64,000 nt of DNA, from assembly GCA_947053925.1 (NCBI GenBank), contig CAMRUG010000003.1, forward strand, positions 64,205-128,204, written 5' to 3'. Position 1 is the first letter of the stretch, and the number at the start of each line of letters is the position of its first letter. Origin of the DNA: an uncultured Clostridia bacterium (GTDB taxonomy: Bacteria; Bacillota; Clostridia; Christensenellales; CAG-314). Below, in pieces: positions 28,996-58,953 of the stretch. The notes below the pieces were generated by a model. That model was not told the DNA's origin and made no database searches. It was given only the letters and a program-made list of their open reading frames with translations. The position numbers were made by a program, and so were the translations under genes.

Positions 28996-29648
28996 TTTGT
29001 TCTCCTTGTGTCTGTAATTACGACACTTCTGATTAAATTTTATTAAAAAAACAATTTAATAATCTACAGCTTATAAATTTATTATACTAGACATTGCTGA
29101 ATATAACTTACAGAAATAACTCTTTACGCTGTCTGCTTGCAAAATTTTATTACCGATATAAACTATATCCTTTTGATTGGCTATTGCCAACAGTTTAAAC
29201 TAATATGCAATCTCTAAAATAATGCCGTATATTATTAAACATTTTTAATTGTCAATTTTTGTCCGAGTCAAAAGATACACACACTCAGTATCAATTCACA
29301 AATTTATTTTTATACGTAATTGTATGCCGACAGTATCTTATCTTGACAGGCACTGTATCTTACCATATTTTAAAAGCAAAGTCAATAGCAAATAAAAAAT
29401 AAACTATACAATTTAGCGCTATAACATATAAAAATTTTTAATAACAAGTAAATTATCAAAACACAATAAAACAACACATACAAAATTTGTTACACGAAAC
29501 AGCTTTTAAAAACAAATCTTGCCATACTATACTCTATTGAAAACAAAAAGTATTTATTTTACTTTATAAACTATTGGTAGTATAATACAAAAAACATATT
29601 GAGACAATAAACGATAATTTAACAAATATATTAAAGGGAGACGGATTT

Positions 29649-30257
29649 ATGAATGCGGAATTTAAAATCAACGGGAAACAAATCGAAACCGAAAGACTGA
29701 TATTAAGACCGTTTAAGCAATCCGATTTGAACGATTTTTTTGAATATGCTTCGGTCGAAGGCGTTGGAGAAATGGCGGGTTGGCAGCATCACGAAAACAA
29801 AGATATAAGTCAGCGTATATTGGATTCGTTTATATCCGAAGATAAAACTTTTGCCATCTGTTTAAAAAGCAATAATAAAGTAATCGGTTCGTTAGGCATT
29901 GAAAAATACGGATTAGAAGATAAATTAACCGAATTTAACAATTTGAAAGGCAGAGAAATCGGCTATGTATTAAGCAAAGATTATTGGGGACAAGGTTTAA
30001 TGCCGGAAGCAGTTAAAGCAATAATCGACTATTTATTTGTAGATCTCGATTTTGACTTTTTAACTTGCGGATATTTTACTTTTAACAATCAATCTAAAAG
30101 AGTTCAGGAAAAATGCGGCTTCAAGCCGTACAGAAAACTCGAATTGGAAACGCAATTAGGCACAAAAGAGCAAACGCTATTAAATCTTCTTCTTAATCCC
30201 AGCAAAAAACTCAATTTGGTTTATTCTCATCCTGAAACTTTAATTTACAAAAAATAG
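29649..30257 (+). CDS. GNAT-family N-acetyltransferase (RimJ/RimL-like)
   Basis: ETERLILRPFKQSDLNDFFEY and the later YWGQGLMPEAVKAIIDYLF motif A region. Confidence 0.8.
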   Translation: MNAEFKINGKQIETERLILRPFKQSDLNDFFEYASVEGVGEMAGWQHHENKDISQRILDSFISEDKTFAICLKSNNKVIGSLGIEKYGLEDKLTEFNNLKGREIGYVLSKDYWGQGLMPEAVKAIIDYLFVDLDFDFLTCGYFTFNNQSKRVQEKCGFKPYRKLELETQLGTKEQTLLNLLLNPSKKLNLVYSHPETLIYKK

Positions 30258-34955: not shown

Positions 34956-35165
34956 AAAAAAATCGCGAACTATTAAACGTCGCGACAAAAGCGGTAACAT
35001 CTAATAGCGCAACACACTCAAAGTGTGACAGTCGCAAAGATATTCTCCTTGCGCCCAGCAAGTCTGCCGTTAGGGACAGCAAACCGCTTCGGCAGTTTTT
35101 CCTTTACCGTTAAGACCCTTTAACCCTTTTATCTTAACTTATCTTAAAAACCGCGCCTCTATCTT
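34956..35165 (-). promoter_or_regulatory. lysine riboswitch (L-box) with intrinsic terminator
   Basis: The minus strand reads GATAGAGGCGCGG...CTGCCGAAGCGG...TGCTGGGCGCAAGGAG...GACTGTCACAC. These blocks match the conserved blocks of the B. subtilis lysC L-box (GATAGAGGTGCG / GCCGAAG / TGCTGGCCGTGC / GGCTGTCA). It ends in a TCGCGA...TCGCGA hairpin plus U7. Confidence 0.8.
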
Positions 35166-35328
35166 GATTTATTTATTTGTAAATAAATTATATATGAACG
35201 GCATAATTTGTGTCAAATAATTTAATATGATTTTTAAAATTATATCAGTTTGCCATTATATTGAACAAGTTACATAAAAAAATAAAACTCTCAAACCGAG
35301 AGTTTTACCGTAAACGCATTGAACAACG

Positions 35329-41219: not shown

Positions 41220-42084
41220 AACCGCAAAATTGCAACGCATTTACATCGCCGTTTTCTATTGCATAAATAACACGTTTAACATACAACCCTATGGCATTGT
41301 TTAAAGAATACTTCTTATTATCAAATAGTACTTCCTTGTTTATCAACTGCTGTAAAATATGCTTGTGCTCTTTATTAAAACTTTTAACATCCATTTGCAA
41401 AACCGTTCTGTCTACAAACGGACGAAAAGGCTCCATAAGGTCGCAACTCAAATTGAAGTGATTGTATTCGTTGTTGTGATTTATTCCGAAATTTGCAGAA
41501 TAGCCGTTAACTGCAACTTCGCGGTTAAATGCCGATAACAGTATACTGTAACCGTAATCTAACGCGGCATTGGTATCTGTTGCTATTTGCCTTGTAAAAT
41601 CGTTACCGAAAACAGCATTAAAGTAAACTTTCGCCGCGTGTCCTTCTCTGTTGGTAATGTCGCCTTGACGGACATCCGCCATATAATTAAACAACATATC
41701 TGCTTGAGTTTGATGACCGTACTTTTTAAGTACTAACATTTGCTGATAAATTTTATGCCGAACAATTTCCGTCCATATAATTTGTTTATTATATTCTGCC
41801 CAAGCAATCTGCTTTCGCAAACAGCCGCTGGTATCGTAACGTAACGAAGTGGGAACAAGTTCAAAAAACGGATTGTGCTTTTCATCGCAAAATATAACTT
41901 TAATTTTACGACGCGTAAGTTCACACAATAAACTGGCCGTAACCGCTACGGCAACACTTTCTACTATCAACACAGATATTTCCGAAAGATGAATTTTGAC
42001 AGTTTCTTCTCCGCGGCAAACCAAATAATCCAAACGGTGTTCAAGCTTGCATCTGTTTGTTACCGTTACCACGCGCCAACTCAA
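41209..42084 (-). CDS. cas1: Cas1 (type II)
   Basis: 291 aa with the type II Cas1 layout. It overlaps the cas9 stop by 4 nt, and cas2 follows. Confidence 0.93.
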   Translation of the reverse strand: MSWRVVTVTNRCKLEHRLDYLVCRGEETVKIHLSEISVLIVESVAVAVTASLLCELTRRKIKVIFCDEKHNPFFELVPTSLRYDTSGCLRKQIAWAEYNKQIIWTEIVRHKIYQQMLVLKKYGHQTQADMLFNYMADVRQGDITNREGHAAKVYFNAVFGNDFTRQIATDTNAALDYGYSILLSAFNREVAVNGYSANFGINHNNEYNHFNLSCDLMEPFRPFVDRTVLQMDVKSFNKEHKHILQQLINKEVLFDNKKYSLNNAIGLYVKRVIYAIENGDVNALQFCGYEF

Positions 42085-45000
42085 CTGTTATTCTCCTTGT
42101 CAAATTGACTCAGCGGTATTTTTTGTTCAAATATGCCTGTTACGGACCTGTGAACGATACTGATATCGTCCAATGATTCAAATACTGAAGAAGTCAATAT
42201 ATTTCCGCAAGACTTTCCTTCTTCTACCAACGATAAATTACTAGTTGTAGCATTGCACTGCAACGCTTTAGCTATCTCTGCTAGCACAACACACTGTTTT
42301 GCACGACATAAATTGGCAAATTTTTGTCTCAAATTTTCAGTCGACAATTTATGTACAAACGATTGAAGACTTGCCGCACCGCTATATTTGGAAGATGACA
42401 GTTTTTCCATAAATACGTCATATAAGATTTTATTCTGTTCCAACGTAATATCGTCATAATCAGTAACGTTATATGTTTGTTTTTGTACGCTTGCTTTATT
42501 GTATTTTTCTACAACGTTTACCACTTTTTTCAGATACCGTTCGGTTTCTTCATCACAGGCATTTTGCTGCGCAATGCGCCAAATAATTCTGTTACCCGTC
42601 ATTGCAGAAAGAGACAATAATGTATTTCCGAACTCAAACATTGTTTGAACCTTTATTCTAGGTATAAGAATTCTAGCATTTTGTAGCCCGCATTTTTCGC
42701 AATAATCAATTCGGCTTTTGTTATCCAATAATTTGTTCGAATCTTTTGCAGTTACGCCCAACAATTTATAGTAACATTTTTCATTTTGTTCCTTTTTAGT
42801 CTGCTTAACTTGGGTATACTTGACCAGCATATAGTACGCACGTGTTTCGCTGATATAACCGCCGTACTTTGCTGTATCGGACATACATTTGTATTTGCGG
42901 TTTGTGCTGTTCTCTCCCTTTAAAGGAACTAAATTAGCATTGTCGGCGTTTTTCTTTTGCAGTGTGGCTTCGAATAACTGTCCTTTTACCACTTTGCTTT
43001 CGCGAGTGAACAGCACTGCATTACTGCGCATTGTTTTTTCGACTTGCGCCATTGTTCCGTCTTCTCCGGCAATCCATGCTACTACAGATTTATTTTTGAC
43101 ATCGTGTTCAAACAGTTTTGCCGGCGAAACGAGTTTCTCTGTAGGATGGTTTTTCATCCAAAATCTTGCGTTATGCTCATAGCGGACATTATAAACGTTA
43201 CCAACCACTATGTTCAAATAAGCGTCCTTTGCGTGATGCAAGTCGTTAAGCTCACGGCACTTTACAAAACGGGATACGCGCTGTTCTCCCATTTGTTTCG
43301 GCATAGCACGGAAGTCGCTGATATTACCTGCTTTTGACCACACAATTTCGCTCTCGGGAAATACACCTTTAAGTAATTCTATTACTTCCTTAGTTGTTTG
43401 ACGCGTTTCGACAAGTTGCCTGTTAATAAAATCGGCAAGTTCATCATCGGTTAACGGTGTGTTACGGGTTAAACGTCTGTATTTCTCCTCACTCATCAAA
43501 CCTTGCTTCTTCAAGACTAGCCATTTGCTCTCCATTTTTTTGCGTACGCTTTCTTCAATGGGATATGTATCCGTTTTAACTGCATTGTGTGTGCGGTATG
43601 TTAACACAAGATTACTATGAATACTGTCGTCTTTTACTTTACTGCGGGGATATATGTGGTCTTTGTCATACAAATGCAAATTATTGTAATCAATAACATC
43701 TCCCGTATAAATATCAATGCCATTTTGCATAAAGTATAAAAACAACTTGGTATTTTGAAGACTTTCCGGCTTGAGTTCACAAAATTGTTTATAAACATTT
43801 TCGTTGAACATATCATCGCGTTGCTCTTTTAGTTTGTCCAGAGCAGCAGACAACATTTGGTAACGCGACGCATTACGTTTGCGTTCTTCTGACTTATCTT
43901 TTTTGCTATTTGTATCGCGTGCAACTTCTACAAATATTTTAGACGGCGCGCGTCCTAGTATATCGGTCAATTCCTTTACTATACATAGAGTCTGCCATAT
44001 TTGCTTTTTAACGGCAGGAGAACAGTATAATGAGTCGACAACATCATACGAAATCCCGCTAGATATATTATCACGAAGTTGATTGAATCCGTCTTTAAAA
44101 CCGTATACTTCGTTATTCCATATTTCCATAAAGTTATACTGACTGTTCCGCATAGCATCTATTATCGACAAAGTATGCAATTCTCCCGTATCGGGATCTG
44201 TTCCGATACGTTTTGTAAGCATTTCTTTAGAATAACGTCCCCAACCTTTAAGAGACAAGCCCTTGATTATACTGATTTGCTGCTCGGTTAAATAGTCAAA
44301 TTCCTTTTTTAAACGCTTTACTAGATTGTTTTTTTTCGGACCAGCTATGGTAGCATATAGAATTATTTTTTCAATATCTTCTCTGTGTTCTTCAACTCCC
44401 CTTACAGAGCCGTCAAATATTTTGACAAACTGATAGTAGGTACGTCGATGAACAGTTGCACCATCGTCAAAACCATCTATTTCAATTTTGTCATTATCTT
44501 CATATACGTTCTGTAATTTTAACCACTGTTTTAAAATTTTTGCAGTAAGTTTGCTTTCTCCATTTGTAGCATAATACTCCGACAATTTCAATTTTAAATC
44601 GACGCTTAAACGCGTGCCGTTTATTCTGATACAGTTAACAACATTGAGAAAAGCAAATTCCTCGTATAAAAGACTACATTTAGGCAAAACCTTTGCGCCG
44701 TCTACATACGGACATTTATTTGTCATACGCTGAACGAAATTATTCTCTGTGGCAAATAAATCAATTTTTTGTTCGTAATTCCAAGGAAGAATTTTGCCGC
44801 TTTCAGAACGTACTATCCAGTATTTGCCGCTATGATTATTTGTAGGACCAACATAATACGGCATTTTAAACGTCAAAAGCGATTTAATTTTGTCGTACGT
44901 TCTAATACCGCTTTTATCAGTTTCATTGATAAAAGCATAACGCGGATATTGGATAATGTTTTTTAAAATCGTTTCCAACTCTGCCAAATTAAGTTGATAC

Positions 45001-46286
45001 GGCAAAGTGGAATTACGTTTACTAACCTGCTTTGGCATAAACGTACCGTCAGCCATATCCGACAAAATACGTTGCACAGTTTCGTCGTTTTGTGCTTGCT
45101 CATACGAAGTTAATATTGATTTGACGTATTTTACGAAATCTTCATAGCTACGACTTTTAGCTGTTTCCAACAACTGCTTATTGCCGTCAACCTTCTTGCC
45201 GAAATTAACTTTACCGCTATAAGCAGTATAGTTAGTTTCTTTGTCGTTCTTTTTAAACATTAAGTCGTAAGTTTCTTGAGGAAAATACTTTTTTAGCACT
45301 CTTTTTAAATCCGCAAGATCTTTACTATGTTTTTTGTACCTTTCTACCATTCCTTCCGACAAAAAACTATAATTGCCCAAAATTGTTTTTAATTGTGCAT
45401 AATCATAAAGTAATTTAGCGTTTTCGATAAGTATATAGTCATCTTGCAACAACTCTCGATATTCCGATTCTTTTGCTTCCCATTCGCAATCGAAAGTAAC
45501 CGACAGCGAAGTTTCAGTGTCGGGAAACAATGCTTTGATCTTAACGGAATTACCCGCTATCAGTTTTAACACTGCTTCTAATCGGCTGTTTTTAGGTGCA
45601 TCAAAACAATCCTTATAACGCTGTGCGCGTTCGGATTTAGTACCTTTTTCGACTAAACAATTTTGGAATTTTTTAATTATTTCCTTGGTCAAATTTAATT
45701 GCTCAACTTTTTCACTACTTGACAAATAACAGGCAATTGAATTCAAAGGCGCCTCAATATTATCAATAACGCTTACGCTATCGCCTTCTTGCAAAAAGTG
45801 CCCGCGGTATTTGATAATATGATGCAACGCCAGATATACCAATCTCGGATCAGGATCGGTCTCGGTCATCATTGCCAACCGTAAATGGTAAATCGTTTTG
45901 TATTTTTTGTAAAATTCTTTATCGGTATAGTCTTTATCGTTAAACAACGAAAACTTAGTCTTTTCACGTTTGTCGCCGTCATATAAATTGCTGTCTGAAA
46001 GACGTGCGAAAAAATTGCCGTCAATTTGATTGATAACGGGCGCAAAAATTTCTTGCAGCAATTCTATACGCCATTTGCGTCGTTCTAATCTTCTGCGAGA
46101 TTCTCGGCTCAAACGTCTGTTACTTGCAGATTGAGCCGAATCAAACAAACGTACGCCCCACAAATTTTTATTATTTGCGCGTAAAAGTTTATAATTAGTA
46201 TCGGTAACCGCCCAGCCGACTGAATCGGTGCCTATATCCAAGCCCAAATAATAATTTTCGTAATTTCTTTTGTTTTTTTGACTCAT
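42081..46286 (-). CDS. cas9: Cas9 (type II-A, 1401 aa)
   Basis: RuvC-I YYLGLDIGTDSVGWAV; an arginine-rich bridge helix (NRRLSRESRRRLERRKWR); HNH YDKDHIYPRSKVKDDSIHSNLVLTYRTHNAVK. The operon continues with cas1-cas2-csn2. Confidence 0.97.
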   Translation of the reverse strand: MSQKNKRNYENYYLGLDIGTDSVGWAVTDTNYKLLRANNKNLWGVRLFDSAQSASNRRLSRESRRRLERRKWRIELLQEIFAPVINQIDGNFFARLSDSNLYDGDKREKTKFSLFNDKDYTDKEFYKKYKTIYHLRLAMMTETDPDPRLVYLALHHIIKYRGHFLQEGDSVSVIDNIEAPLNSIACYLSSSEKVEQLNLTKEIIKKFQNCLVEKGTKSERAQRYKDCFDAPKNSRLEAVLKLIAGNSVKIKALFPDTETSLSVTFDCEWEAKESEYRELLQDDYILIENAKLLYDYAQLKTILGNYSFLSEGMVERYKKHSKDLADLKRVLKKYFPQETYDLMFKKNDKETNYTAYSGKVNFGKKVDGNKQLLETAKSRSYEDFVKYVKSILTSYEQAQNDETVQRILSDMADGTFMPKQVSKRNSTLPYQLNLAELETILKNIIQYPRYAFINETDKSGIRTYDKIKSLLTFKMPYYVGPTNNHSGKYWIVRSESGKILPWNYEQKIDLFATENNFVQRMTNKCPYVDGAKVLPKCSLLYEEFAFLNVVNCIRINGTRLSVDLKLKLSEYYATNGESKLTAKILKQWLKLQNVYEDNDKIEIDGFDDGATVHRRTYYQFVKIFDGSVRGVEEHREDIEKIILYATIAGPKKNNLVKRLKKEFDYLTEQQISIIKGLSLKGWGRYSKEMLTKRIGTDPDTGELHTLSIIDAMRNSQYNFMEIWNNEVYGFKDGFNQLRDNISSGISYDVVDSLYCSPAVKKQIWQTLCIVKELTDILGRAPSKIFVEVARDTNSKKDKSEERKRNASRYQMLSAALDKLKEQRDDMFNENVYKQFCELKPESLQNTKLFLYFMQNGIDIYTGDVIDYNNLHLYDKDHIYPRSKVKDDSIHSNLVLTYRTHNAVKTDTYPIEESVRKKMESKWLVLKKQGLMSEEKYRRLTRNTPLTDDELADFINRQLVETRQTTKEVIELLKGVFPESEIVWSKAGNISDFRAMPKQMGEQRVSRFVKCRELNDLHHAKDAYLNIVVGNVYNVRYEHNARFWMKNHPTEKLVSPAKLFEHDVKNKSVVAWIAGEDGTMAQVEKTMRSNAVLFTRESKVVKGQLFEATLQKKNADNANLVPLKGENSTNRKYKCMSDTAKYGGYISETRAYYMLVKYTQVKQTKKEQNEKCYYKLLGVTAKDSNKLLDNKSRIDYCEKCGLQNARILIPRIKVQTMFEFGNTLLSLSAMTGNRIIWRIAQQNACDEETERYLKKVVNVVEKYNKASVQKQTYNVTDYDDITLEQNKILYDVFMEKLSSSKYSGAASLQSFVHKLSTENLRQKFANLCRAKQCVVLAEIAKALQCNATTSNLSLVEEGKSCGNILTSSVFESLDDISIVHRSVTGIFEQKIPLSQFDKENNS

Positions 46287-48506: not shown

Positions 48507-48833
48507 AATTTTAATACCCGCTACTTTTTTAGGAATAACCTGTCCCCAAAAACCCATTTGATTTTTACAATTACCTTACCCGCATTGTTAAGTTTAGCAT
48601 AATGATTTGTAAACTTTTTTGCGGATTTGAAACATTGACTTTACAAATAAATTTATCATAATTACATTTATATTTCAAGCGTATTAAACATTTGGTGCAA
48701 AATTTAGACTATAATAATTAAATAAAATATGTTTATTATTTTAGACACTATATTTAACTAAATAAATATTCTATATTTTAAGTGTAAGACGTTTACAAAC
48801 AATGTAAACTGTGTTAAAATATGTACACATTTG

Positions 48834-48909
48834 GACGATTAACTCAGCTGGGAGAGTGTCTCCTTGACGTGGAGGAAGTCACAGGTTCGAGTCCTGTATC
48901 GTCCACCAC
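48834..48909 (+). tRNA. tRNA-Val (GAC)
   Basis: It folds by hand into a 76-nt cloverleaf: GGACGAT/ATCGTCC acceptor, ACTC/GAGT D-stem, anticodon loop TTGACGT, T-arm ACAGG-TTCGAGT-CCTGT and an encoded CCA. Confidence 0.9.
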
Positions 48910-50328
48910 TCGTTCGTAAAGCGAACCCGTAGAAAAGTCTGTTACATTGTAACGGACTTTTCCTTTTTTATTGCCGTAATAAATTACTTTATTGACAAAA
49001 GTATCTATAAGTGCCTGTTTGTTTTCGGTTTTGGAATAGTCAAGGTGTTTGAAACGCTTTACGTAATAGCGCAAATCTTCCAACTTAAAATCAAGAATTT
49101 CAGACTCTTCAACTTCAAGTTGCAGTTCGACTTCTTTACGCTCTTTTTCGAGTTGGTCTAATTTTTCAAGAATCGTATTTTTCGCCTTGCCGTCCATAAG
49201 CAGTTGTAAAAGATTATCCGTTGCTTTTTTATTGGCGGTAAGCAATTTTTCTAATCTCGGTACGTTTCCGTTTTTTAGTTCGTTCTGTAAAATTTCGTAT
49301 AGTGCTTGCGAAATCTTATCGATTAGTTTATCGTCAAGCAATTTAAGCGTTTCCTGAATAACTGCATTTTCAATCAAGTCTTTTGAAACTGTTTCTTGCT
49401 TGCAACCGTCTTTTTTGCCGAAACAACGATAATAAGCATATTTCTTGCCTGTATGACTTGTTCCGCTTGCGCCCGTCATAGAACTCTCGCATAGACCGCA
49501 AAAGAGTTTTGTAGTCAACAAAAACGGCTCTCTCGCCTTCTTGGATGAGGGGGCTTTATTGTTTCGTTCTAAACGGCTTTGTACGGCTTCGTAAAGCTCA
49601 TCGGATATAATTTGCGGAATGCCGCCTTTAATTTCTTTATCGTGAAAAATATAATAACCGAGATAGCGGCGATTATGTAGAATACGTTTTACCGTACCGT
49701 GACCGATTGTTTTGCCTTTGTTAAAAATCTTATTGTCAAGCAAAAACTCCTCTATTTCAACAATAGTTTTCCCGTCTGCGTACATTTCAAAAATTTTACG
49801 AACGAATACGGCTTCGCTTTCGTTGATTTGATAGTGTTTGTCTTCGTCTATATAATAACCGAGCGGAATAGCGCCGCCGAAGAATTGACATTTGCTTGCC
49901 GATACTTCGATACCGCGTTTTATCTTCTGCGAGAGTTCGACGGAATAATATTCCGCCATACTTTCGAGTACGCCTTCTACAAGAATACCGCTTGCGTCTT
50001 CGGTTATGTTTTCTTTGGCAGATAAAACGCGCACGCCGTTCTTTTTCAATTTTGCTTTATAAGTTGCGCTATCGTAGCGGTTGCGTGCAAAACGGTCCAA
50101 CTGATAAACAAGAACATACTTGAAAGTCTTTTTCTTGCTATCTTCAATCATACGCAAAAATTCGGGACGCTTATCCGTAGTTCCCGTCAATGCTCTGTCT
50201 ATGTATTCCGCTATTACATTGTAGTCGTTACGCTTGGCAAATTCGTAACACTCTTTTAACTGACCTTCAATTGATTGCTCCGTTTGCGAATGGGAACTGA
50301 ACCGTGCATATATTACGACGTTTACCAT
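48844..50328 (-). CDS. large serine recombinase
   Basis: MVNVVIYARFSSHSQTEQSIEGQ (catalytic Ser motif), DRFARN, a recombinase domain, the zinc ribbon CGLCESSMTG...YYRCFGKKDGC and a coiled-coil. Start at ATG 50328 with a GGAGG-type RBS. The last 22 codons (stop included) overlap tRNA-Val. Confidence 0.9.
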   Translation of the reverse strand: MVNVVIYARFSSHSQTEQSIEGQLKECYEFAKRNDYNVIAEYIDRALTGTTDKRPEFLRMIEDSKKKTFKYVLVYQLDRFARNRYDSATYKAKLKKNGVRVLSAKENITEDASGILVEGVLESMAEYYSVELSQKIKRGIEVSASKCQFFGGAIPLGYYIDEDKHYQINESEAVFVRKIFEMYADGKTIVEIEEFLLDNKIFNKGKTIGHGTVKRILHNRRYLGYYIFHDKEIKGGIPQIISDELYEAVQSRLERNNKAPSSKKAREPFLLTTKLFCGLCESSMTGASGTSHTGKKYAYYRCFGKKDGCKQETVSKDLIENAVIQETLKLLDDKLIDKISQALYEILQNELKNGNVPRLEKLLTANKKATDNLLQLLMDGKAKNTILEKLDQLEKERKEVELQLEVEESEILDFKLEDLRYYVKRFKHLDYSKTENKQALIDTFVNKVIYYGNKKGKVRYNVTDFSTGSLYERVVDDTGLEPVTSSTSRRHSPS

Positions 50329-50352
50329 AAAAATTACTCCTTCCAAAAAGCA

Positions 50353-50423
50353 AAAACGGGTATCCTGTTTCTTTCCGAAATCGTAGCGAAAATCACGAAG
50401 TGAGTCTCGCTCTTATCCTGTTC
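50353..50423 (-). repeat. ~71-nt leader motif, copy 1 (upstream of the recombinase)
   Basis: In the gene sense: gaacaggataag-AGCGA-18 nt-TCGCT-...-aaacagg-ata-cccgttt-TTT, then RBS and ATG. It is the inverted counterpart of 51600-51669. Confidence 0.7.
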
Positions 50424-50498
50424 AAAAATTTAGGACTTTTTCGGCTTTTTAGAGTCAATTATATTTTATCACTTTTACCTAAAAACATCAACAAATAC

Positions 50499-50527
50499 TT
50501 GGCATTTTTTATAAAAAGTGTTATAAT
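50499..50527 (+). promoter_or_regulatory. sigmaA-type promoter (TTGGCA-17-TATAAT)
   Basis: Near-consensus hexamers ~35 nt upstream of the XRE gene. Confidence 0.55.
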
Positions 50528-50560
50528 CTTTACAAGAGTTAAAAGGAGCAATATATTGAT

Positions 50561-50758
50561 ATGACTTTTTCGGAAAAAGTGAAAGCCGTTCGCAATCAAT
50601 TACAATTAACGCAGGAAGAACTCGCCCACAAATTAGGCGTTAGTTTTGCAACGGTTAATCGTTGGGAAAGCGGTTCGTATAAACCGAGCAAAATGGGACA
50701 AAGAATGTTTGAAGAATTTGTAGAAAAGAACAATTTAAATCAGGAGAATAACGAATGA
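50561..50758 (+). CDS. XRE-family helix-turn-helix protein
   Basis: VRNQLQLTQEELAHKLGVSFATVNRWESGSYKPS. Confidence 0.75.
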   Translation: MTFSEKVKAVRNQLQLTQEELAHKLGVSFATVNRWESGSYKPSKMGQRMFEEFVEKNNLNQENNE

Positions 50759-51564
50759 AAAAGTCAATCAACGTACAAGGTTACCCTATCGGAATAAAGG
50801 GTATCGAAAAAGAAAATTATATTTCTTTAACGGATATTGCACGCTTTAAAAATCCGGAAGCGCCTGCCGACGTGGTTAAAAATTGGATGCGTACACGCGC
50901 AACGATAGACTTTCTCGGTCTATGGGAAGAGCTCAATAATCCAAATGTTAACGTGGTCGAAATCGACCAGTTTAAAAATCAAGCGGGGGCAAATGCTTTT
51001 ACGATGTCTCCAAAAAAATGGATTGAAGCGACAAATGCAATCGGTATCTATTCTTCTTCCGGCAAATACGGCGGCGGAACTTTTGCACATCAAGATATAG
51101 CGTTTGAGTTTGCAAGTTGGGTTTCGGCTGAATTTAAGTTGTATCTAATCAAAGAATTCCAGCGGCTTAAAATCAACGAACAAAAAGAACTTGAATGGAA
51201 CAGCAAGCGCGAACTATCAAAAGTTAACTACCATATCCATACCGATGCAATTAAAAGTAATTTAGTCGTTCCGACTTTGAACGATTGGCAAGTCAGTTTC
51301 GTATATGCGTCAGAAGCGGATATACTTAACACTGCTCTATTCGGTAAAACAGCGGCAGATTGGCGAAAAGAAAATCCCGATAAAAAGGGAAACATACGCG
51401 ACTATGCAACCATGGAACAATTGCTTGTAATAGCAAATATGGAAAGTTATAACGCTATTTTAATCGCACAGGGATTACCGCAATCCGAACGATTGAAACT
51501 ATTAAACGCAATGGCTGACAGCCAAATGCAAGTATTGCTGAATAGTCCTAAAAGATTGAAATAA
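50755..51564 (+). CDS. KilA-N domain DNA-binding protein
   Basis: ISLTDIARFKNPEAPADVVKNWMRTRATIDFLGLWEELNNP ... FAHQDIAFEFASWVSAEFKLYLIKEF is typical of KilA-N proteins found next to R-M genes. It overlaps the XRE gene by 4 nt. Confidence 0.6.
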   Translation: MKKSINVQGYPIGIKGIEKENYISLTDIARFKNPEAPADVVKNWMRTRATIDFLGLWEELNNPNVNVVEIDQFKNQAGANAFTMSPKKWIEATNAIGIYSSSGKYGGGTFAHQDIAFEFASWVSAEFKLYLIKEFQRLKINEQKELEWNSKRELSKVNYHIHTDAIKSNLVVPTLNDWQVSFVYASEADILNTALFGKTAADWRKENPDKKGNIRDYATMEQLLVIANMESYNAILIAQGLPQSERLKLLNAMADSQMQVLLNSPKRLK

Positions 51565-51599
51565 GTGAATCAGAGTACTTAAAAATCCCCTTATTTAGG

Positions 51600-51669
51600 G
51601 AACAGGATAAAGGTGGGATTCACTTGGTGTGCATGCCACCCACATAAACACAAACGGGATACCCGTTTT
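51600..51669 (+). repeat. ~70-nt leader motif, copy 2 (upstream of the R-M gene)
   Basis: gaacaggataaa-GGTGG-19 nt-CCACC-...-aaacggg-ata-cccgttt-T, then RBS and ATG 51690. The 30-nt box is 24/30 identical to copy 1, and the hairpin is conserved. Confidence 0.7.
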
Positions 51670-51689
51670 GAGAACAAAAAGGAAATACC

Positions 51690-54600
51690 ATGATTAACAA
51701 AAGTAACTTTAAAGAATTGATTATAAAACTTGGCTTTACGGATAACGGCACATTATTTGTAAAAGAATTCGCGCAATTTTCTTGTTCGATGTCCGTCGAC
51801 TTTGTAAATGAAAAATTAATCTATCCTACTTTTATCGTCGGCAGAGAGCGCAACGATTCTTTTAGCCAAGACGAAAATTTCGTTGTGTTTGAATGTGTAA
51901 ACCGACTTTTAGAAAAAGGTTATCGTCCCGAACATATCGAACTCGAAAAGGTTTGGACTTTGGGACATATTCAAAAAAGCGGGCGTGCCGATATTTGCGT
52001 TTATAATAAAGATAAGTCCGCTATGCTTTTCATCATAGAATGTAAATCTGCAGGTAGAGAGTATAATAAAGCCTTAAAAAACACTTTAAATGACGGCGCA
52101 CAGTTATTTTCCTATTGGCAACAAGAACAATCGACTAAATGGCTTTGCCTTTATCAGTCTGATTATGTGAATAATGAAGTTTGTTACAAAGCGACTACAA
52201 TCAATTGCTCTGACGATAAAAATATAGAAGATTTAGCGAAGAAAGATAAAACCATAAAACTTTATTCTTCCGCCTTTACTGCACCGGAAAAATATTTAGT
52301 ATGGAAAGAAACTTATAATCTTCAAATTCTTGATAATATCATATTTGCAGAAGATACGGTTGCATACGAAATCGGAATAAGGCCTTTACGTAAAAAAGAT
52401 TTAAAAGACTTTTCGCCGGAAGATAAAATAGTAAACCGTTTTGAAGAAATATTGCGCCACAATAACGTAAGCGATAAAGAAAATGCCTTTAATCGGTTAA
52501 TAGCGTTGTTTATTTGTAAACTCGTCGATGAAATAGAAAAATCCGATACAGACGAAGTAGAATTTCAATATAAACTCGGCACAGACACATATGAAAGTCT
52601 GCAAGACAGATTGCAAAGACTTCATAAACAAGGTATGGACGAGTTTATGAAAGAAAAGATTTTCTATGTAGAAAACGATTACGCCGAAAAATTGTTTTTG
52701 CAATACACCGGTTCTAAAAGAAAACAAGCGATAGAAGATTTAAGTAAAACAATAAGAATTTTAAAATTCTATACAAATAACGATTTTGCTTTTAAAGATG
52801 TACATAACGAAGAACTTTTCTTCCAAAACGGTAAAATCTTAGTCGAAGTCGTTCAACTTTTTGAAAATTACAGAATTGTCTATCCTGCAAAACATCAATT
52901 TTTGGGGGATTTGTTCGAACAGTTATTAAATAAAGGTTTTAAGCAAAACGAAGGGCAATTTTTTACTCCTACTCCCATAACCCGTTTTATATGGGATAGT
53001 TTGCCTATTGAAAAAATAATTAAGAACAAAGACAAATACAATTTACCGAGAGTTATCGACTATGCTTGCGGCGCTGGGCATTTCTTAACCGAAGGCGTTG
53101 AAGCAATCAATAGTTATTTTGAACATATCGGTAATGCGGCATTAGTGCAAAATAATGCGTGGGTTGAAACCAATATTTATGGGATAGAGAAGGACTACCG
53201 TTTGGCTCGTGTGTCAAAAGTTTCAATGTTTATGAACGGTGCGGGCGGAGCAAATATTGTTTTTGGGGACGGACTTGAAAACTATCCCGAAAAACAGATT
53301 GAAGCAAATTCGTTTGATATTTTGGTTGCTAATCCGCCGTATTCCGTTGAAGCTTTTAAGCCACATTTAAAATTAAAAAATAATTCTTTTGAATTGTTAA
53401 AAATTATATCTAATAACGGATCGGAAATAGAAACGCTATTTGTTGAACGAATTGCTCAACTTGTAAAGCCAAAAGGTATCGCCGCCGTATTGTTACCTTC
53501 TCCGATACTCTCAAATACTTCATCAAGTTACATTGTAGCACGAGAACAGTTTTTAAAACATTTTCTTATTCGCGCAATTGTCAGTTTAGGTTCGAAAACT
53601 TTTGGGGCAACCGGTACAAATACGGTAATTATGTTTTTGGAAAAACGTGATGAACCGCCCATACAAGAGAAGTTAGTTGAAGATAGTGCTAATGCAATCC
53701 TTTCTAATCTTAATTTAACGGATTGGATTGATAGCGAAATCAAATTACAATATTTATCTCAAATCGGCGTTGCTGATGACGAATACGCTGTATTGATTGA
53801 CGAAAATCAAGATATAAATTTATTGCAAGAATCCGATTATTTTAAAGGATATTTTACCGAATATAACAAAACTAAAAGAAAACAAACGGTAAGAGCGTTT
53901 ATAAAAGAACGGGAATTTAATAAACTCAAATATTTTGCTTTGGTTTGCAAACAAGAAACTTTAATAATCACAGCTCCTGCCGATAATATAAAACAAAAAG
54001 AATTTTTAGGATATGATTGGAGTAATCGCAAGGGTGCCGAAGGAATCGTTATCAATAAATTCGGCGGAATGATGTTTGATGAACAGAACCGATATGCAGA
54101 GAACACATTAGCGTTTCTTATCAAACAATCATTTTTTAACAATAAGTTATCATTGCTAGATAAAGAACATTATTATGCGTATTACGAATTAAAAAATTTA
54201 ATAGATTTTAGTAGATTAGAATTTCATAAAGCGATTAAGATTGTTAATGACAAAAAATTAACAATCAGTAGCAAATACAATTTATTACCGTTGGGACAAA
54301 TCTGCGATGTTCGTATAGGTGGTACTCCTTCTAGAAAAAATATGCAATACTTTACAGGAACTAACTTATGGGTTACCATTGCAGAAATGAATGGTCAAGT
54401 GATTAACGATACTAAAGAGAAAATTACTGAACAAGCAATAAAAAATTCTAACGTAAAACTTATTCCGAAAGGTACAACTCTGTTAAGTTTTAAGTTGAGT
54501 ATTGGGAAAACGGCAATAGCAGGTGTTGATTTATACACAAATGAAGCAATAGCCGCACTTATACCGCTTACAAAAAATTTATTGAATGCGTATTTATTCC

Positions 54601-54857
54601 ATTTATTTCACAGTGGTTTAATAGATTTAACGAATGTTGGAAACAAAGCATTTGGTAAAAGTTTAAATAGCACATATTTAAAAGAAGAAGTAAAAATCCC
54701 AGTACCCCCGCTTGATATTCAAGAAAAGATAATTGCGGAATGTCAAAAAGTTGATGAAGAATATAACTCTACACGCATGACTATCGAAGAATATCGTAGA
54801 AAGATTGAGAAACTATTTCGCGAACTCGACGTAATTTCTGGGGGGGGTATGAGTTAA
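51690..54857 (+). CDS. fused restriction endonuclease - N6-adenine methyltransferase - specificity (TRD1) protein, type IIB/IIG-like; frame ends just after a G8 tract
   Basis: N-terminal PD-(D/E)xK candidate (GRADICVY ... FIIECKS); methylase motif I DYACGAGHFL and motif IV LVANPPYS. The C-terminal HsdS-like TRD is LPLGQICDVRIGGTPSRKN...NEAIAALIP, followed by a conserved helix. Confidence 0.85.
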   Translation: MINKSNFKELIIKLGFTDNGTLFVKEFAQFSCSMSVDFVNEKLIYPTFIVGRERNDSFSQDENFVVFECVNRLLEKGYRPEHIELEKVWTLGHIQKSGRADICVYNKDKSAMLFIIECKSAGREYNKALKNTLNDGAQLFSYWQQEQSTKWLCLYQSDYVNNEVCYKATTINCSDDKNIEDLAKKDKTIKLYSSAFTAPEKYLVWKETYNLQILDNIIFAEDTVAYEIGIRPLRKKDLKDFSPEDKIVNRFEEILRHNNVSDKENAFNRLIALFICKLVDEIEKSDTDEVEFQYKLGTDTYESLQDRLQRLHKQGMDEFMKEKIFYVENDYAEKLFLQYTGSKRKQAIEDLSKTIRILKFYTNNDFAFKDVHNEELFFQNGKILVEVVQLFENYRIVYPAKHQFLGDLFEQLLNKGFKQNEGQFFTPTPITRFIWDSLPIEKIIKNKDKYNLPRVIDYACGAGHFLTEGVEAINSYFEHIGNAALVQNNAWVETNIYGIEKDYRLARVSKVSMFMNGAGGANIVFGDGLENYPEKQIEANSFDILVANPPYSVEAFKPHLKLKNNSFELLKIISNNGSEIETLFVERIAQLVKPKGIAAVLLPSPILSNTSSSYIVAREQFLKHFLIRAIVSLGSKTFGATGTNTVIMFLEKRDEPPIQEKLVEDSANAILSNLNLTDWIDSEIKLQYLSQIGVADDEYAVLIDENQDINLLQESDYFKGYFTEYNKTKRKQTVRAFIKEREFNKLKYFALVCKQETLIITAPADNIKQKEFLGYDWSNRKGAEGIVINKFGGMMFDEQNRYAENTLAFLIKQSFFNNKLSLLDKEHYYAYYELKNLIDFSRLEFHKAIKIVNDKKLTISSKYNLLPLGQICDVRIGGTPSRKNMQYFTGTNLWVTIAEMNGQVINDTKEKITEQAIKNSNVKLIPKGTTLLSFKLSIGKTAIAGVDLYTNEAIAALIPLTKNLLNAYLFHLFHSGLIDLTNVGNKAFGKSLNSTYLKEEVKIPVPPLDIQEKIIAECQKVDEEYNSTRMTIEEYRRKIEKLFRELDVISGGGMS

Positions 54858-54883: not shown

Positions 54884-55363
54884 TTGTTTATCGGAAAGCG
54901 CGTATTAAATAGCGAACTTGTCGAAACAGGATTGCCCGTATTTAGTGCTAATACTTATGAGCCTTTCGGGTATATAAACTCGGATATAGTTAAAGACTTC
55001 TCTACACCTTCGGTTATTTGGGGAATTGACGGGGATTGGATGACGAATACTCTCCCTTCAAATTATGCGTTTTATCCAACGGACCATTGCGGTGTAATTC
55101 GTTTGAAAAAAAGCAATGTAATTGAATACAAATATTTGGCTTGGTTGCTTTTGCAAGAAGGTAAAAAGGCGCGGTTTTCAAGGTCGTATCGGGCTTCAAT
55201 TGATAGGGTAAGTCAAATAAAATTAGCCGTTCCTCCATATGAAAAACAAAAAGAATTTGTTGCTCAAGTTGATGTTTTAGAACAACAAATAGCAGAATTG
55301 GAATCAAAGCTGGGTGCAATAGATAAAGAAAAACAAGACATTATTTCTAAATATTTAAACTGA
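54884..55363 (+). CDS. HsdS-like target recognition domain 2 plus conserved helix (probably the displaced C-terminus of the upstream R-M protein)
   Basis: FIGKRVLNSELVETGLPVFSAN ... TDHCGVIRLK ... KYLAWLLL, then coiled-coil QVDVLEQQIAELESKL. This frame is open from 54809 through the G8 tract (54840-54847). The track start is a TTG, and I saw no RBS upstream of it. Confidence 0.7.
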   Translation: MFIGKRVLNSELVETGLPVFSANTYEPFGYINSDIVKDFSTPSVIWGIDGDWMTNTLPSNYAFYPTDHCGVIRLKKSNVIEYKYLAWLLLQEGKKARFSRSYRASIDRVSQIKLAVPPYEKQKEFVAQVDVLEQQIAELESKLGAIDKEKQDIISKYLN

Positions 55364-55579: not shown

Positions 55580-56737
55580 ATGGCAGAAGCTCTTACAGGC
55601 GTAAACGGCTCAATTATAAAATGGGCTCGCGAATATTACAACATGTCACCAATGGATGCTGCTTACACTATTGGTATTGATTTAGAGCGATATGAAAAAT
55701 GGGAAGAAGGGACAGAGTTTCCCACGTATGCAAAGTTAAAGCAAATAAGTGCTGTATTCCATAAGCCCTGCGCCATTTTCTTCTTTCCTACTCCACCAGA
55801 ATTGCCAAGTATAAAAGGTGATTTGAGAACTCTTCCATCTTCTATTGTGGACACTTTAAGCAAGAATGTAGTTCTTCAATTTGAGAAAGCTAAAGTATAT
55901 CAACTTAATTTGCAAGAGTTATATGGTAGTCGTGAAAGCATAATTGAAAAGTATCAAAATTTACAATTGGACAGAAATGCGCTATGCAAAACATTAAGAC
56001 AGCAATTTGAATTTCCAGTTAGCGCACAAAAAGCAAGAAAATCTGATAAAGTAGTTTTTGAAATATTTAGAGAAAAATTTTATAATTTAGGCATTTATGT
56101 TTTTAAAGATGCTTTTAAAGATAATAGCATATCTGGACTTTGTGTCAACGATAAAAATTATCCTATAATTATAATAAATAATGCGATGTCGTTTGCACGA
56201 CAAAATTTCACATTGTTTCACGAGTTATATCATCTTATTTCTAATACGAGTGGCGTGGAAATTATTCGCGATGAATACTATAATGAACTTAATGACTCTC
56301 AAAAAGCAATAGAGAAAGAATGTGATTGTTTTGCAAATGAATTTTTAGTGCCTACAACAGATTTCGAACTTGAATTAAAAAAACAAGAAATTACAGAAAA
56401 AAGAATTGCAGAATTAGCTACATTGTATTCTGTTAGTAAAGAAGCAATTATGTATAAGCTATATGCGCTTCATATTATTTCAGCAGATGATTATGCCGCA
56501 TTGAAAGAATATTTCTACGGAGATGCTATTCGAAGTAAACAAAATAATGGCGACACAAAGAGCAGTGGGAATTACTATTTTACAAAACTTTCATATTTGG
56601 GGCATCAATATACTGGCGAAGTATTTAGTCAATATTTCTCAGGCAAAATTGATACTTACCGCGCAAGTGAAATGCTATCAAGTAAAGTAGAACATCTCTC
56701 TAAATTGGAAGCGACATTTTTTAGGGGGATTAAATAA
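55580..56737 (+). CDS. ImmA/IrrE-family HTH-Zn-metallopeptidase (COG2856-like)
   Basis: N-terminal XRE-type HTH region (IIKWAREYYNMSPMDAAYTIGIDLERYEKWEEG) and HExxH in FTLFHELYHLISN. Confidence 0.8.
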   Translation: MAEALTGVNGSIIKWAREYYNMSPMDAAYTIGIDLERYEKWEEGTEFPTYAKLKQISAVFHKPCAIFFFPTPPELPSIKGDLRTLPSSIVDTLSKNVVLQFEKAKVYQLNLQELYGSRESIIEKYQNLQLDRNALCKTLRQQFEFPVSAQKARKSDKVVFEIFREKFYNLGIYVFKDAFKDNSISGLCVNDKNYPIIIINNAMSFARQNFTLFHELYHLISNTSGVEIIRDEYYNELNDSQKAIEKECDCFANEFLVPTTDFELELKKQEITEKRIAELATLYSVSKEAIMYKLYALHIISADDYAALKEYFYGDAIRSKQNNGDTKSSGNYYFTKLSYLGHQYTGEVFSQYFSGKIDTYRASEMLSSKVEHLSKLEATFFRGIK

Positions 56738-57219
56738 TGGTTTATGTTATTGATACTTGTGTCTTCCGCAAACTTTTAGATCATTTACCGCGCAAAGGTA
56801 GCTACTTTGAAAAAGTATGGAATAAATTTGAAAATGGAATTATAGCAAAAAATTATATTTCTGTAGATGAATGCTTTAATGAACTAGATAAGCATTACGA
56901 TGATAAAAGTGCAAATGCTCTATGGCTAAAAAAATATAAGAATATGTTCCTATCTCCTACAAACGCGGAATCTTTAATTATAAAGGATATTTTTACATCT
57001 GCCAAAATGAGAGAAAGCGTACATACTAAAAATATTCTTGATAATAGACCTTCCGCGGATGTGTTTTTAGCCGCAAAGGCAAAAACAACAAACGCCATTG
57101 TGGTAACAGTAGAATCATACAAACCTAATTCTGCACAATTACCAAATATATGCGAAAAAATTGGAGTTCAATTTATTAGTTATGACGATTTTATGGAAAT
57201 CTTAATGCAAGATGAATGA
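56737..57219 (+). CDS. DUF4411 (PIN-like) domain protein
   Basis: MVYVIDTCVF N-terminus (PIN-like acidic start). Its size and obligate pairing downstream of an ImmA/IrrE gene match DUF4411. The start overlaps the upstream stop. Confidence 0.55.
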   Translation: MVYVIDTCVFRKLLDHLPRKGSYFEKVWNKFENGIIAKNYISVDECFNELDKHYDDKSANALWLKKYKNMFLSPTNAESLIIKDIFTSAKMRESVHTKNILDNRPSADVFLAAKAKTTNAIVVTVESYKPNSAQLPNICEKIGVQFISYDDFMEILMQDE

Positions 57220-57450: not shown

Positions 57451-57471
57451 CGAGTCCTGTATCGTCCACCA
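57451..57471 (+). repeat. attR core: duplicated 3' end of tRNA-Val
   Basis: cgagtcctgtatcgtccacca is identical to 48889-48909. Confidence 0.85.
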
Positions 57472-58594: not shown

Positions 58595-58670
58595 GGGGGT
58601 GTAGCTCAGCTGGGAGAGCACCTGCCTTGCAAGCAGGGGGTCAGCGGTTCGATCCCGCTCATCTCCACCA
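58595..58670 (+). tRNA. tRNA-Ala (TGC)
   Basis: 76-nt cloverleaf: GGGGGTG/CATCTCC acceptor with G3:U70, anticodon loop CTTGCAA, T-arm AGCGG-TTCGATC-CCGCT and CCA. Confidence 0.95.
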
Positions 58671-58782
58671 CTCGTCAAGCGCAATATTAAAGTGTGGCTT
58701 TCAATGCTTAAAGCACTGCATAAATGCGCAATACATTGGGCAACAGCAGAGTAAATGCCCACAACTTAATACTTCCAATTAT

Positions 58783-58813
58783 AGGAGCATAGCTCAGCAG
58801 GTTAGAGCACCAC
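58783..58813 (+). pseudogene. truncated tRNA-Ile 5' fragment (acceptor 5' strand + D-arm + start of the anticodon stem)
   Basis: aggagcatagctcagcaggttagagcaccac is identical to the first 31 nt of tRNA-Ile at 58877, but it lacks a T-arm and a 3' acceptor strand. Its ~42-nt upstream flank is also duplicated. Confidence 0.75.
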
Positions 58814-58876
58814 AATGCAACACAGGGTGGTGAACAACGGCAGAGTAAGTGCCAAAAACTTAATATTTCCAATTAT

Positions 58877-58953
58877 AGGAGCATAGCTCAGCAGGTTAGA
58901 GCACCACCCTGATAAGGTGGGGGTCGGTGGTTCGAGTCCACTTGCTCCTACCA
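58877..58953 (+). tRNA. tRNA-Ile (GAT)
   Basis: 77-nt cloverleaf: AGGAGCA/TGCTCCT acceptor, GCTC/GAGC D-stem, CCACC-CTGATAA-GGTGG anticodon arm, T-loop TTCGAGT and CCA. Confidence 0.9.

Follow-up and report, generated by a model that had tools for sequence, protein, structure and literature searches.

The window, that is, the whole 64,000-nucleotide stretch of DNA analyzed, carries an 8.5-kb island at tRNA-Val. The island is bounded on the left by a 21-bp repeat from the tRNA-Val 3' end (48888-48908, plus strand) and on the right by the second copy of this 3' end (CGAGTCCTGTATCGTCCACCA; 57451-57471, plus strand). These ends are the substrates of a large serine recombinase of 494 aa (48844-50328, minus strand; Pfam Resolvase, Recombinase and Zn_ribbon_recom), the last ~20 codons of which run antisense into tRNA-Val. 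A segment at 50561-51564 (plus strand; Pfam HTH_3 and KilA-N) encodes an XRE protein (50561-50758) and a KilA-N protein (50755-51564); in loci L005, L006, and L021 this slot holds other cargo. A Type IIG restriction-modification (R-M) gene follows at 51690-54857 (plus strand; 1055 aa; Pfam HSDR_N_2, N6_Mtase, Eco57I, and Methylase_S). It is truncated by a G8 tract (54840-54847); in L041 the tract is G9 and the gene is called at 1224 aa. The R-M gene varies through this poly-G tract.

Two copies of a motif, W1 and W2, lie on either side of the XRE-KilA-N segment. W1 (50349-50433, minus strand) is in the leader of the serine recombinase and scored 69.9 bits (E = 8e-14) with covariance model R1. 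W2 (51590-51673, plus strand) is in the leader of the R-M gene, the first gene 3' of this copy, and scored 70.6 bits (E = 6e-14). Each copy consists of a box, a stem (P1), a linker, and a hairpin (P2). On the minus strand, W1 is made up of box GAACAGGATAAG (50423-50412), P1 with AGCGAGA (50411-50405) facing TTTCGCT (50391-50385), the linker (50384-50371), and P2 AAACAGGATACCCGTTT (50370-50354). The corresponding parts of W2, on the plus strand, are box GAACAGGATAAA (51600-51611), P1 with GGTGG (51612-51616) facing CCACC (51636-51640), the linker (51641-51651), and P2 AAACGGGATACCCGTTT (51652-51668). An earlier note on this DNA had described the pair, and a sequence check agreed with its placement of the copies at 50353-50423 (minus) and 51600-51669 (plus). 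Inspection by eye also confirmed the 24/30 identity of the 30-nt boxes, the compensatory changes in P1 (AGCGA/TCGCT versus GGTGG/CCACC, in which three of five pairs differ and are complementary), and the hairpin word AAAC(A/G)GGATACCCGTTT in both copies. Some finer details required correction. The W1 loop is 17 nt rather than 18-19 nt, and 13 nt if the stem is extended to AGCGAGA/UUUCGCU; the loop word that is conserved reads (C/T)TCACTT and not (A/T)TCACTT; the copy 1 hairpin contains an A.C mismatch and is followed by two T, GC, and TTTTT instead of by TTT; and the ATG codons, placed by the earlier note within 10-20 nt, are 21-25 nt 3' of the hairpins.

Pattern matches in the window numbered six, as compared to a mean of 0.39 in shuffles. 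The resemblance of W1 to W2 is more than chance and not a local duplication, because the same element recurs at other loci. Folded alone, the window copies were unimpressive (z about -1.2; P2 alone, -4.3 kcal/mol in W1 and -7.9 kcal/mol in W2), and the case for structure is therefore made by comparison with other sequences and not by energy.

Of 33 genome loci collected by a degenerate pattern, 27 contained the element according to the pattern scan and the covariance model, and all 27 are titled as Firmicutes/Bacillota lineages. In metagenomes, 79 model matches were obtained in 75 of 80 loci, many from human-gut assemblies. The model building and scanning that the earlier note had suggested as a check yielded about 100 instances with strong covariation. 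The motif heads integrase, conjugation, and defense genes of gut-Firmicutes mobile elements, strictly in the sense orientation to the downstream gene. For the 35 copies from the window, the recombinase-homologue loci, and the genome scan, a same-strand ORF started within ~370 nt 3' of the motif in every instance and within ~120 nt in 31; at L032, only a short GTG-start ORF is found within ~370 nt. These ORFs encode serine recombinases (homologous recombinases follow the motif in L001, L005, and L006), tyrosine integrases, HTH_17 excisionase-like proteins, T4SS pilins, and a 68-73-aa protein heading defense cargo. In most cases a family member is a lone copy adjoining a tyrosine integrase or pilin gene, and in L059 the motif is located between an HTH regulator gene (HTH_11) and xis-int. 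Two copies in divergent transcription units around a repressor-type gene were seen in the window, L005, L006, L021, L113, and L114. Cargo-side copies appear less constrained, scoring mostly 58-72 bits (82.6 for that of L113); the otherwise invariant box has a G-to-T change in L114, and L021b has lost 1 nt.

Rfam 15 does not contain the family, and no description of it was found. Rfam 15 gave no relevant match for the window at the gathering threshold, none for 50250-51800 at E up to 10, and none for the six loci with the best-scoring members at E up to 1. A literature search on sequence words and related topics was likewise negative, in agreement with the earlier note, which had recognized no known element. 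With blastn of one motif copy, the plasmid collection returned nothing and phages gave just a chance 32-nt match; pattern scans of viral contigs found no motif.

Across the family, the motif is 70-85 nt long and is composed of an invariant ACAGGAUAA box, a variable stem P1, and a bulged conserved hairpin P2. The single-stranded box has the consensus (G)AACAGGAUAAG, and it and the P2 apex (AAACGGGAUACCCGUUU) are nearly invariant, even though P2 is paired; the search pattern itself partly forces this invariance of the box and P2 core. P1 is free in sequence and its pairing is always kept. In the genome set, 93.1% of cells were paired compared to 78.1% in shuffles and 36-58% in slid controls, with 88 double-change cells versus 23 in shuffles and compensatory changes at 12 of 17 pairs. 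The metagenome set, a separate collection gathered by the same pattern and model, was 94.2% paired and contained 110 double-change cells versus 29. RNAalifold returned the same two helices from a plain MAFFT alignment and from the model-fitted alignment, and G.U pairs occur in the helices. These results indicate with high confidence that the motif is a real structured RNA family.

Other pairings were considered. An upstream helix between a semi-conserved CCUCAAAA and a U/G-run 5' of the box was paired in 49% of cases, compared to 52% in shuffles, and was rejected. A helix between the box and the P2 3' arm was also rejected because the box does not follow the A/U swap of P2, remaining GAACAGG where P2 is AAUCGGG/CCCGAUU. 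An extension of P1, joining box AGGAU to linker AUYYU, is tentatively predicted from several minimum-energy folds; the box is invariant, which puts this extension beyond the reach of covariation testing.

Scanning for promoters revealed a promoter-like site, TTGATG-17-TAAAAT with a TG-extended -10 (50463-50491, minus strand), that is also present in L021, L005, and L006 and would start the recombinase transcript about 35-40 nt 5' of the W1 box. For the recombinase-side copies, a promoter of their own lies about 40 nt 5' of the motif. The promoter-like site TTGGCA-17-TATAAT (50499-50527, plus strand), identified by the same kind of scan and conserved in L021, is positioned for the XRE-KilA-N operon. 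It was correctly reported by the earlier note but is not the sole promoter, given the divergent site facing the recombinase. The hairpin described as terminator-like is P2, a conserved structural part of the motif. No sense-strand terminator was called by the scan at either window copy, and the U-run of P2 is not free but paired to an A-run in the extended hairpin. About half of the family members have a separate canonical terminator just 3' of P2, and a third hairpin with a U-tract was predicted 0-7 nt after P2 in all eight conjugative-element leaders that were folded (z -2.6 to -7.0). Members without an abutting terminator have a Shine-Dalgarno sequence 5-15 nt after P2. Neither W1 nor W2 is separated from its start codon by a further terminator.

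The best overall explanation, to which we assign a probability of roughly 0.4, is that the motif is a structured leader RNA acting in cis on transcriptional read-through, possibly by antitermination. W1 and W2 are members of a widespread family of structured leader RNAs carried by Firmicutes mobile elements, each copy presumably being transcribed in the sense of its gene and folding into the box, P1, and P2. In the tRNA-Val island, W1 occupies the 5' leader of the recombinase and W2 follows XRE-KilA-N in the leader of the R-M cargo. The RNA may then act on the complex transcribing it, so that transcription continues into the downstream genes or does not. This could take the form of antitermination or insulation like that of put, canT, and conAn2, with the recombinase and the cargo read through under one rule. 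Position and orientation make cis-acting control of the downstream gene likely. Antitermination as the specific mechanism is proposed by analogy, tentatively and at less than even odds; for W1 and W2 its logic is borrowed from other members, because these two copies have no terminator of their own. Minimal islands have in common only a recombinase and an XRE protein, and the lack of an obvious shared trans factor is consistent with an RNA that needs no partner or only host factors. Family covariation and the sense orientation uphold the earlier proposal that the copies are a common cis-regulatory leader whose RNA structure is conserved; its operator and terminator details are not upheld.

Where a terminator abuts the motif, the motif would also be part of read-through transcripts from upstream, and this is no worse a fit to a conditional attenuator than to a constitutive antiterminator. 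The motif would in that case be a riboswitch sensor or the site of a host- or element-encoded RNA-binding protein, and occupancy of the box and P2 would control formation of the neighboring terminator or access to the nearby ribosome-binding site. The abutting terminators in about half of the members, the Shine-Dalgarno sequences soon after P2 in the remainder, and the near-invariance of the box and paired P2 apex agree with this possibility. Two similar words, AACAGGAUA and AACGGGAUA, are spaced about 45-55 nt apart and resemble dual sites for a dimeric RNA-binding protein; CsrA is such a protein and recognizes GGA motifs. However, inspection of the folds by eye revealed no conserved, mutually exclusive pairing of motif and terminator, pairing of the box with the P2 3' arm is unsupported, an aptamer of two simple hairpins would be small, and no candidate ligand or protein was identified. 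Conditional attenuation is possible but rather unlikely. Very strong primary-sequence conservation in the box and at the P2 apex, together with repetition of the word AAC(A/G)GGAUA, suggests recognition by a specific factor or ligand. That the motif is a compact sensor (a riboswitch or a conserved host-factor site) common to unrelated Firmicutes mobile elements is doubtful. If it is, one host signal would switch on integrase/excisionase, transfer genes, and defense cargo together in conjugative elements, mobilizable islands, and serine-recombinase defense islands. A role in RNA processing or stability is improbable. The hairpins would set or shield a 5' end, acting for example as an RNase III or RNase Y site or as a barrier to a 5' exonuclease, and so uncouple downstream from upstream messages. 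This would suit the frequent location of the motif 25-60 nt past an upstream same-strand stop codon (L013, W2, L005b, L006b, L021b, and L008) and the occasionally long, perfect P1 helix (up to 12 bp in L009), but it leaves both the invariant single-stranded box and the frequent terminator between motif and gene unexplained. Uncoupling is also superfluous for recombinase-side copies, since these have their own promoter.

Two further explanations would place the function in DNA. P2 is a near-perfect 17-bp palindrome (AAACGGGATACCCGTTT in W2), the box resembles one of its halves, and TCACTT, the word in the P1 loop, is similar to the TCACTTTT/AAAAGTGA repeats that surround the divergent promoters (50469-50582; inverted repeats I4 and I8), so that the motif might be an operator for the XRE/KilA-N proteins or a promoter for an element-specific sigma factor. 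This is very improbable. A palindrome bound by protein would show the reverse of the observed pattern, in which the stems vary and the loop, box, and flanks are conserved; beyond its palindromic part, the P2 helix extends past a bulge through pairs that covary or are G.U; and orientation to the downstream gene is strict. The neighboring regulators also differ, the motif being found in conjugative and mobilizable elements beside other proteins such as the HTH_11 regulator of L059, so the operator suggested by the earlier note is unlikely. The same note had raised the alternative that the pair bracket a 1.2-kb cassette that can invert and thereby cut the R-M gene off from its promoter; the serine recombinase would be the enzyme responsible. 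The repeats are inverted, a recombinase adjoins them, and a spacing of about 1157 nt is the same in L056, L109, L113, and L114. However, in the assemblies of the window, L040, L041, L114, L056, L109, L113, L005, L006, and L021, XRE is divergent from the recombinase and the inner segment has a single orientation relative to it. Inversion is unsupported because the inverted pair around the XRE cassette is always in the same orientation across at least six island types. Box identity between the repeats is just 80% and their stems have diverged, family members are mostly single copies beside other kinds of genes, the recombinase has the island ends as its substrates, and the G8/G9 tract accounts for the variation in R-M. 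None of the evidence supports inversion, which is extremely improbable and already weakly refuted.

The preferred reading, control of read-through by a leader RNA, can be compared with known cis-acting elements. EAR (eps-associated RNA, the Rfam epsC family) acts in cis in Bacilli to promote terminator read-through in a long operon. It belongs to a chromosomal exopolysaccharide operon, whereas the motif belongs to mobile elements, and no Rfam match to it was found (50250-51800, E up to 10; six best loci, E up to 1). The lambda sites nutL and nutR, made of boxA and boxB, are located one in each of the two early operons that diverge around the repressor gene; the divergent pair of motif copies around a repressor has the layout of nutL/nutR and of putL/putR. 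Like nut, the motif combines a short linear box with a small hairpin, but its box is unrelated to boxA, and nut sites need the phage N protein, for which no counterpart is evident here.

The put RNAs of HK022 are about 70 nt long, form two adjacent stem-loops, and need no phage protein (PMC8191782, PMC11658703). As with the motif pair, one copy is present in each divergent operon flanking the repressor region. The motif has a comparable form, with two adjacent stem-loops supported by covariation and, in recombinase-side copies, a promoter about 40 nt upstream; this is a likeness only and not evidence of membership. Unlike the motif, put has an Escherichia coli phage host range and no invariant single-stranded box, and R1, with filters off, scored at best 4 bits on HK022 27500-30200 (nun to cII region). 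The conAn2 RNA of pLS20 and related conjugative plasmids is 260-600 nt long and needs the protein ConAn1 for long range (PMC8191782). Both conAn2 and the motif are leader RNAs heading conjugation operons in Gram-positive elements, and conAn2 allows RNA polymerase to pass terminators. The 70-85 nt of the motif sets it apart from conAn2 by length and not by sequence comparison; no ConAn1-like gene was noted in the islands, the genes of which were not compared with ConAn1 directly. The cis-acting RNA antiterminator of Tn916, canT, requires 341-452 nt and lacks a defined consensus (Wirachman and Grossman 2024, PMC11658703). It shares with the motif its presence in Gram-positive mobile elements and, with L059, a position between an HTH regulator and xis-int (PMC11658703). 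It acts in cis, is orientation-specific, and has terminators downstream; the motif is known here from its sense orientation and downstream terminators. R1, again with filters off, gave at best 5.7 bits (E = 3) on the 6.2-kb orf9-int region of Tn916 in pCF10 (L043). There are only a few read-through cis-RNAs of mobile elements (put, conAn2, and canT), and most of them are long, with structures that are poorly resolved. The motif, by comparison, is short and sharply defined, with covariation across about 100 instances, and in uncultured gut Firmicutes it is repeatedly found at the start of recombinase, excision, conjugation, and defense operons. If it does control read-through, it would offer a tractable model for the timing of excision, transfer, and expression of restriction or other defenses, a sequence marker in metagenomes for such elements and their cargo boundaries, and possibly a compact expression-control part for Gram-positive bacteria.

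Two copies of the motif are present as had been described, one at 50353-50423 (minus strand) in the leader of the serine recombinase gene (W1) and one at 51600-51669 (plus strand) in the leader of the Type IIG restriction-modification (R-M) gene (W2). Both begin with GAACAGGATAA(G/A) and end with AAAC(A/G)GGATACCCGTTT; their 30-nt boxes are identical at 24/30 positions, and the 5-bp stem carries the three compensatory changes claimed for it. The earlier note had the overall layout right but needs small corrections on how long the copy 1 loop is, on the letter that opens the loop word and on the count of trailing Ts. The W1 hairpin contains one A.C mismatch. The exact 12-mer and 17-mer occur in the window at W1 and W2 only, with 1- and 3-mismatch matches elsewhere, and mismatch-tolerant motif counts in the window exceed the shuffle expectation. 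Folded alone, W1 and W2 have a z-score of about -1.2.

W1 and W2 lie well within an island of ~8.5 kb that is inserted at tRNA-Val (48833-48908), since the 21 nt at the 3’ end of this tRNA (48888-48908) recur as a direct repeat at 57451-57471. Cargo between the repeats, assigned by Pfam, comprises the large serine recombinase (48844-50328, minus strand), whose ORF enters the tRNA antisense, and, on the plus strand, XRE (50561-50758), KilA-N (50755-51564), the Type IIG R-M enzyme with its specificity domain (51690-54857), an extra specificity-domain ORF of 159 aa (54884-55363), M78 peptidase/HTH (55580-56737) and DUF4411/PIN (56737-57219). A poly-G tract (54840-54847) lies inside the R-M gene. 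With G8, as in the window and L040 (the same island in another sample), the R-M protein ends at 1055 aa and the second specificity domain is left as the separate ORF; with G9 (L041, also the same island), the gene is called at 1224 aa. From these alleles, the tract looks like a site of slipped-strand phase variation of R-M specificity or activity. The window also holds a Cas9 gene (1401 aa; 42081-46286, minus strand) ~2.5 kb from the island, a lysine riboswitch (34997-35169, minus strand) and a tRNA-Ala/tRNA-Ile pair (58595-58953, plus strand).

Recombinases 80-84% identical to that of the window were found on other metagenome contigs beside different cargo (AlwI-type R-M with Hachiman; R-M with SIR2 and DUF87; a HATPase protein). 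The motif is upstream of the recombinase in each of these loci, and two of them (L005 and L006) have a second, inverted copy before a second defence operon. At all loci checked, the end of the recombinase ORF overlaps a tRNA or tmRNA gene in antisense: tRNA-Val in the window, tRNA-Ala(cgc) in L001 and L005 (9421-9496) and tmRNA in L006 (8823-9171). Protein conservation is ~90% to about residue 475; beyond it come divergent tails, G(L/F)EP, encoded by the antisense strand of the T-arm GGTTCGA. These overlaps and divergent tails indicate that the recombinases use the T-arm ends of different tRNA-type genes as insertion sites, with C-tails that span the attachment site, which is unusual among serine integrases. 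In L010, a motif-led recombinase with a short tail (479 aa; 5724-7163, plus strand) abuts the C-terminal part of a second serine recombinase (7120-7809, minus strand), an arrangement that suggests insertion into, or beside, another recombinase gene.

A degenerate pattern was built from seven copies (window and recombinase-homologue loci) and scanned over one genome per species. It matched 33 loci, 27 of which are clear members by a covariance model of the family (54-95 bits); all 27 are titled Firmicutes/Bacillota (Clostridia, Clostridiales, Christensenella(les), Subdoligranulum, Bacilli, Bacillales). In metagenomes, many of them human-gut assemblies, the same pattern matched 87 stretches; of the 80 returned as loci, 75 contain model matches, 79 in all (40 distinct sequences). 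None was found in viral contigs, plasmids or phages. The covariance-model scan proposed in the earlier note yielded many more members, and recurrence in other islands and genomes excludes a fortuitous local duplication. The window's two copies fall into separate sub-lineages: W1 with its 5’ flank is like the recombinase-side copies of L021 and L010 and the adhesin-pilin intergenic copy of L013/L023, and W2 is like the cargo-side copies (those before defence genes) of L005, L006 and L021. The ~35 nt upstream of W1 (50434-50470, minus strand) almost match the stretch before the L013 motif (1944-2012, minus strand), which in part codes for the C-terminal end (..KTDSKKPKKD) of a surface protein of 1632 aa, whose gene lies ahead of a T4SS pilin gene. 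This likeness to a coding flank is evidence for movement of the leader module from one type of element to another.

Alignment of 33 copies (MAFFT) and RNAalifold gave an invariant box, ACAGGATAA, and two helices, a variable stem hairpin (P1) and a conserved bulged hairpin (P2). A candidate helix upstream of the motif was tested and rejected. Cells were paired at 93.1% in the genome set (34 distinct rows) and 94.2% in the metagenome set, as compared to 78.1% and 77.7% in shuffles and 36-58% and 33-55% in slid controls; the metagenome set, though a separate collection, was gathered with the pattern and model used for the genomes, and each alignment is fitted to the model. Double-change cells numbered 88 (vs 23 shuffled) and 110 (vs 29), and 12/17 pairs show compensatory change in either set. 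All 7/7 P1 pairs covary. In P2 the apical CGGG/CCCG is without variation, which is partly forced by the search pattern; the third A-U pair becomes U-A in 7-10 sequences, and three pairs extending past the bulged nucleotide covary freely, G.U pairs included. Full leaders of conjugative-element members have fold z-scores of -2.6 to -7.0.

A same-strand ORF starts within ~370 nt downstream in 35/35 copies (window, recombinase-homologue loci and genome scan) and within ~120 nt in 31/35; in L032 the sole downstream ORF is short, GTG-started and 371 nt away. The downstream genes encode serine recombinases, tyrosine integrases, HTH_17 and other small excisionase-like proteins, and T4SS pilins (Maff2-like) heading transfer operons. 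Defence cargo follows directly or via a conserved 68-73-aa protein, and in a small mobilisable element the motif is located after the MobL relaxase gene. Recombinase-side copies have a good sigma-70-type promoter ~40 nt upstream, and cargo-side copies lie 25-60 nt past the preceding stop codon. In about half of members a canonical terminator (hairpin and U-tract) follows P2 by 0-7 nt, before the ribosome-binding site (8/8 leaders folded, plus inspection by eye); W1 and W2 have no such extra terminator. L059 carries, in this order, an HTH regulator, the motif, a terminator, an xis-like gene and a tyrosine integrase. A repeat, TTTTGTC(A/C)ACGGATATAT(A/G)AGGGGAA, precedes the motif-led xis/int region of tyrosine-integrase elements (L020 4390-4500, twice; L059 5530-5560) and may be a promoter or binding site of these elements.

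The 68-73-aa protein (EWLxxALxCYExEKSxNPxYLSFD..ARRIVGQIKEQMKL), which has no Pfam match and is absent from the window's island, is the conserved first gene after the cargo-side copy. It is encoded on the minus strand at L005 3547-3768, L006 ~2950-3168, L021 2694-2900 and L010 2605-2877, and heads unrelated defence cargo (Hachiman; SIR2 with DUF87; cyclase with membrane protein; ATPase). No cargo-side motif copy was detected in L010, where TetR and MFS transporter genes fill the slot between the motif and the gene for the 70-aa protein.

The data show the motif to be a structured element of RNA type with a fixed orientation, which is conserved in many mobile elements and located in leaders and intergenic regions. 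Family covariation and sense orientation support the proposal that it is a cis-regulatory leader common to both genes and conserved in RNA structure. A DNA operator for the island's XRE/KilA-N proteins, also proposed, is unlikely because the neighbouring regulators differ between elements carrying the motif, because the stems vary while loop and box are conserved, and because orientation is strict and G.U pairs are present. The other suggestion, that the inverted pair forms the ends of an invertible cassette, found no support. The XRE gene stays divergent from the recombinase in the same island in other samples (L040, L041), in the ~90% identical variant L114 (with L056 and L109 of equal copy spacing), in L113, a relative with Type I R-M cargo, and in islands with other inner cargo (L005, L006, L021). 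Moreover, single copies make up most of the family, the recombinase acts on the island ends at the tRNA, and the R-M gene appears to be switched by its poly-G tract instead (G8/G9). The promoter TTGGCA-17-TATAAT at 50499-50527 is present; it had been given as the only strong one found, but a divergent promoter-like TTGATG-17-TAAAAT (50491->50463, minus strand) also faces the recombinase.

We infer that the motif acts in cis on expression of the downstream gene, and any function given to the family is likewise putative. P2 itself, described previously as terminator-like, is not canonical; its U-run is paired, and a sense-orientation terminator scan makes no call. The tentatively preferred mechanism is that the motif RNA would control transcript read-through, by antitermination or insulation, because terminators directly follow it, because it heads long operons and precedes xis-int, because copies sit in two divergent units around a repressor gene, like nut/put, and because minimal islands lack any common candidate protein. 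The chief rival is a conditional attenuator, a sensor binding a ligand or protein; in its favour are the terminator directly adjoining the motif, the near invariance of the box and of the apex of P2, and the recurrence of the word AAC(A/G)GGAUA.

Rfam 15 holds no family matching the motif, and literature searches on its sequence words and related topics found no description. The covariance model did not match the Tn916 canT region or the HK022 immunity region, the site of putL and putR. The canT functional region (L043, the Tn916 copy in pCF10, about 2661-2675) contains TGTTCTTTGAAAACT, which is not part of the motif and resembles boxA of Bacillus rRNA operons. The motif is genuine and represents a new RNA family within a known general class, the leader RNAs of mobile elements. 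In L059 it occupies the same place as canT in Tn916, the interval from HTH regulator to xis-int (PMC11658703), and conAn2 of pLS20 has several times its length and comes with a protein partner (PMC8191782). While a member of none of canT, put and conAn2, the motif is similar to them in form and position.
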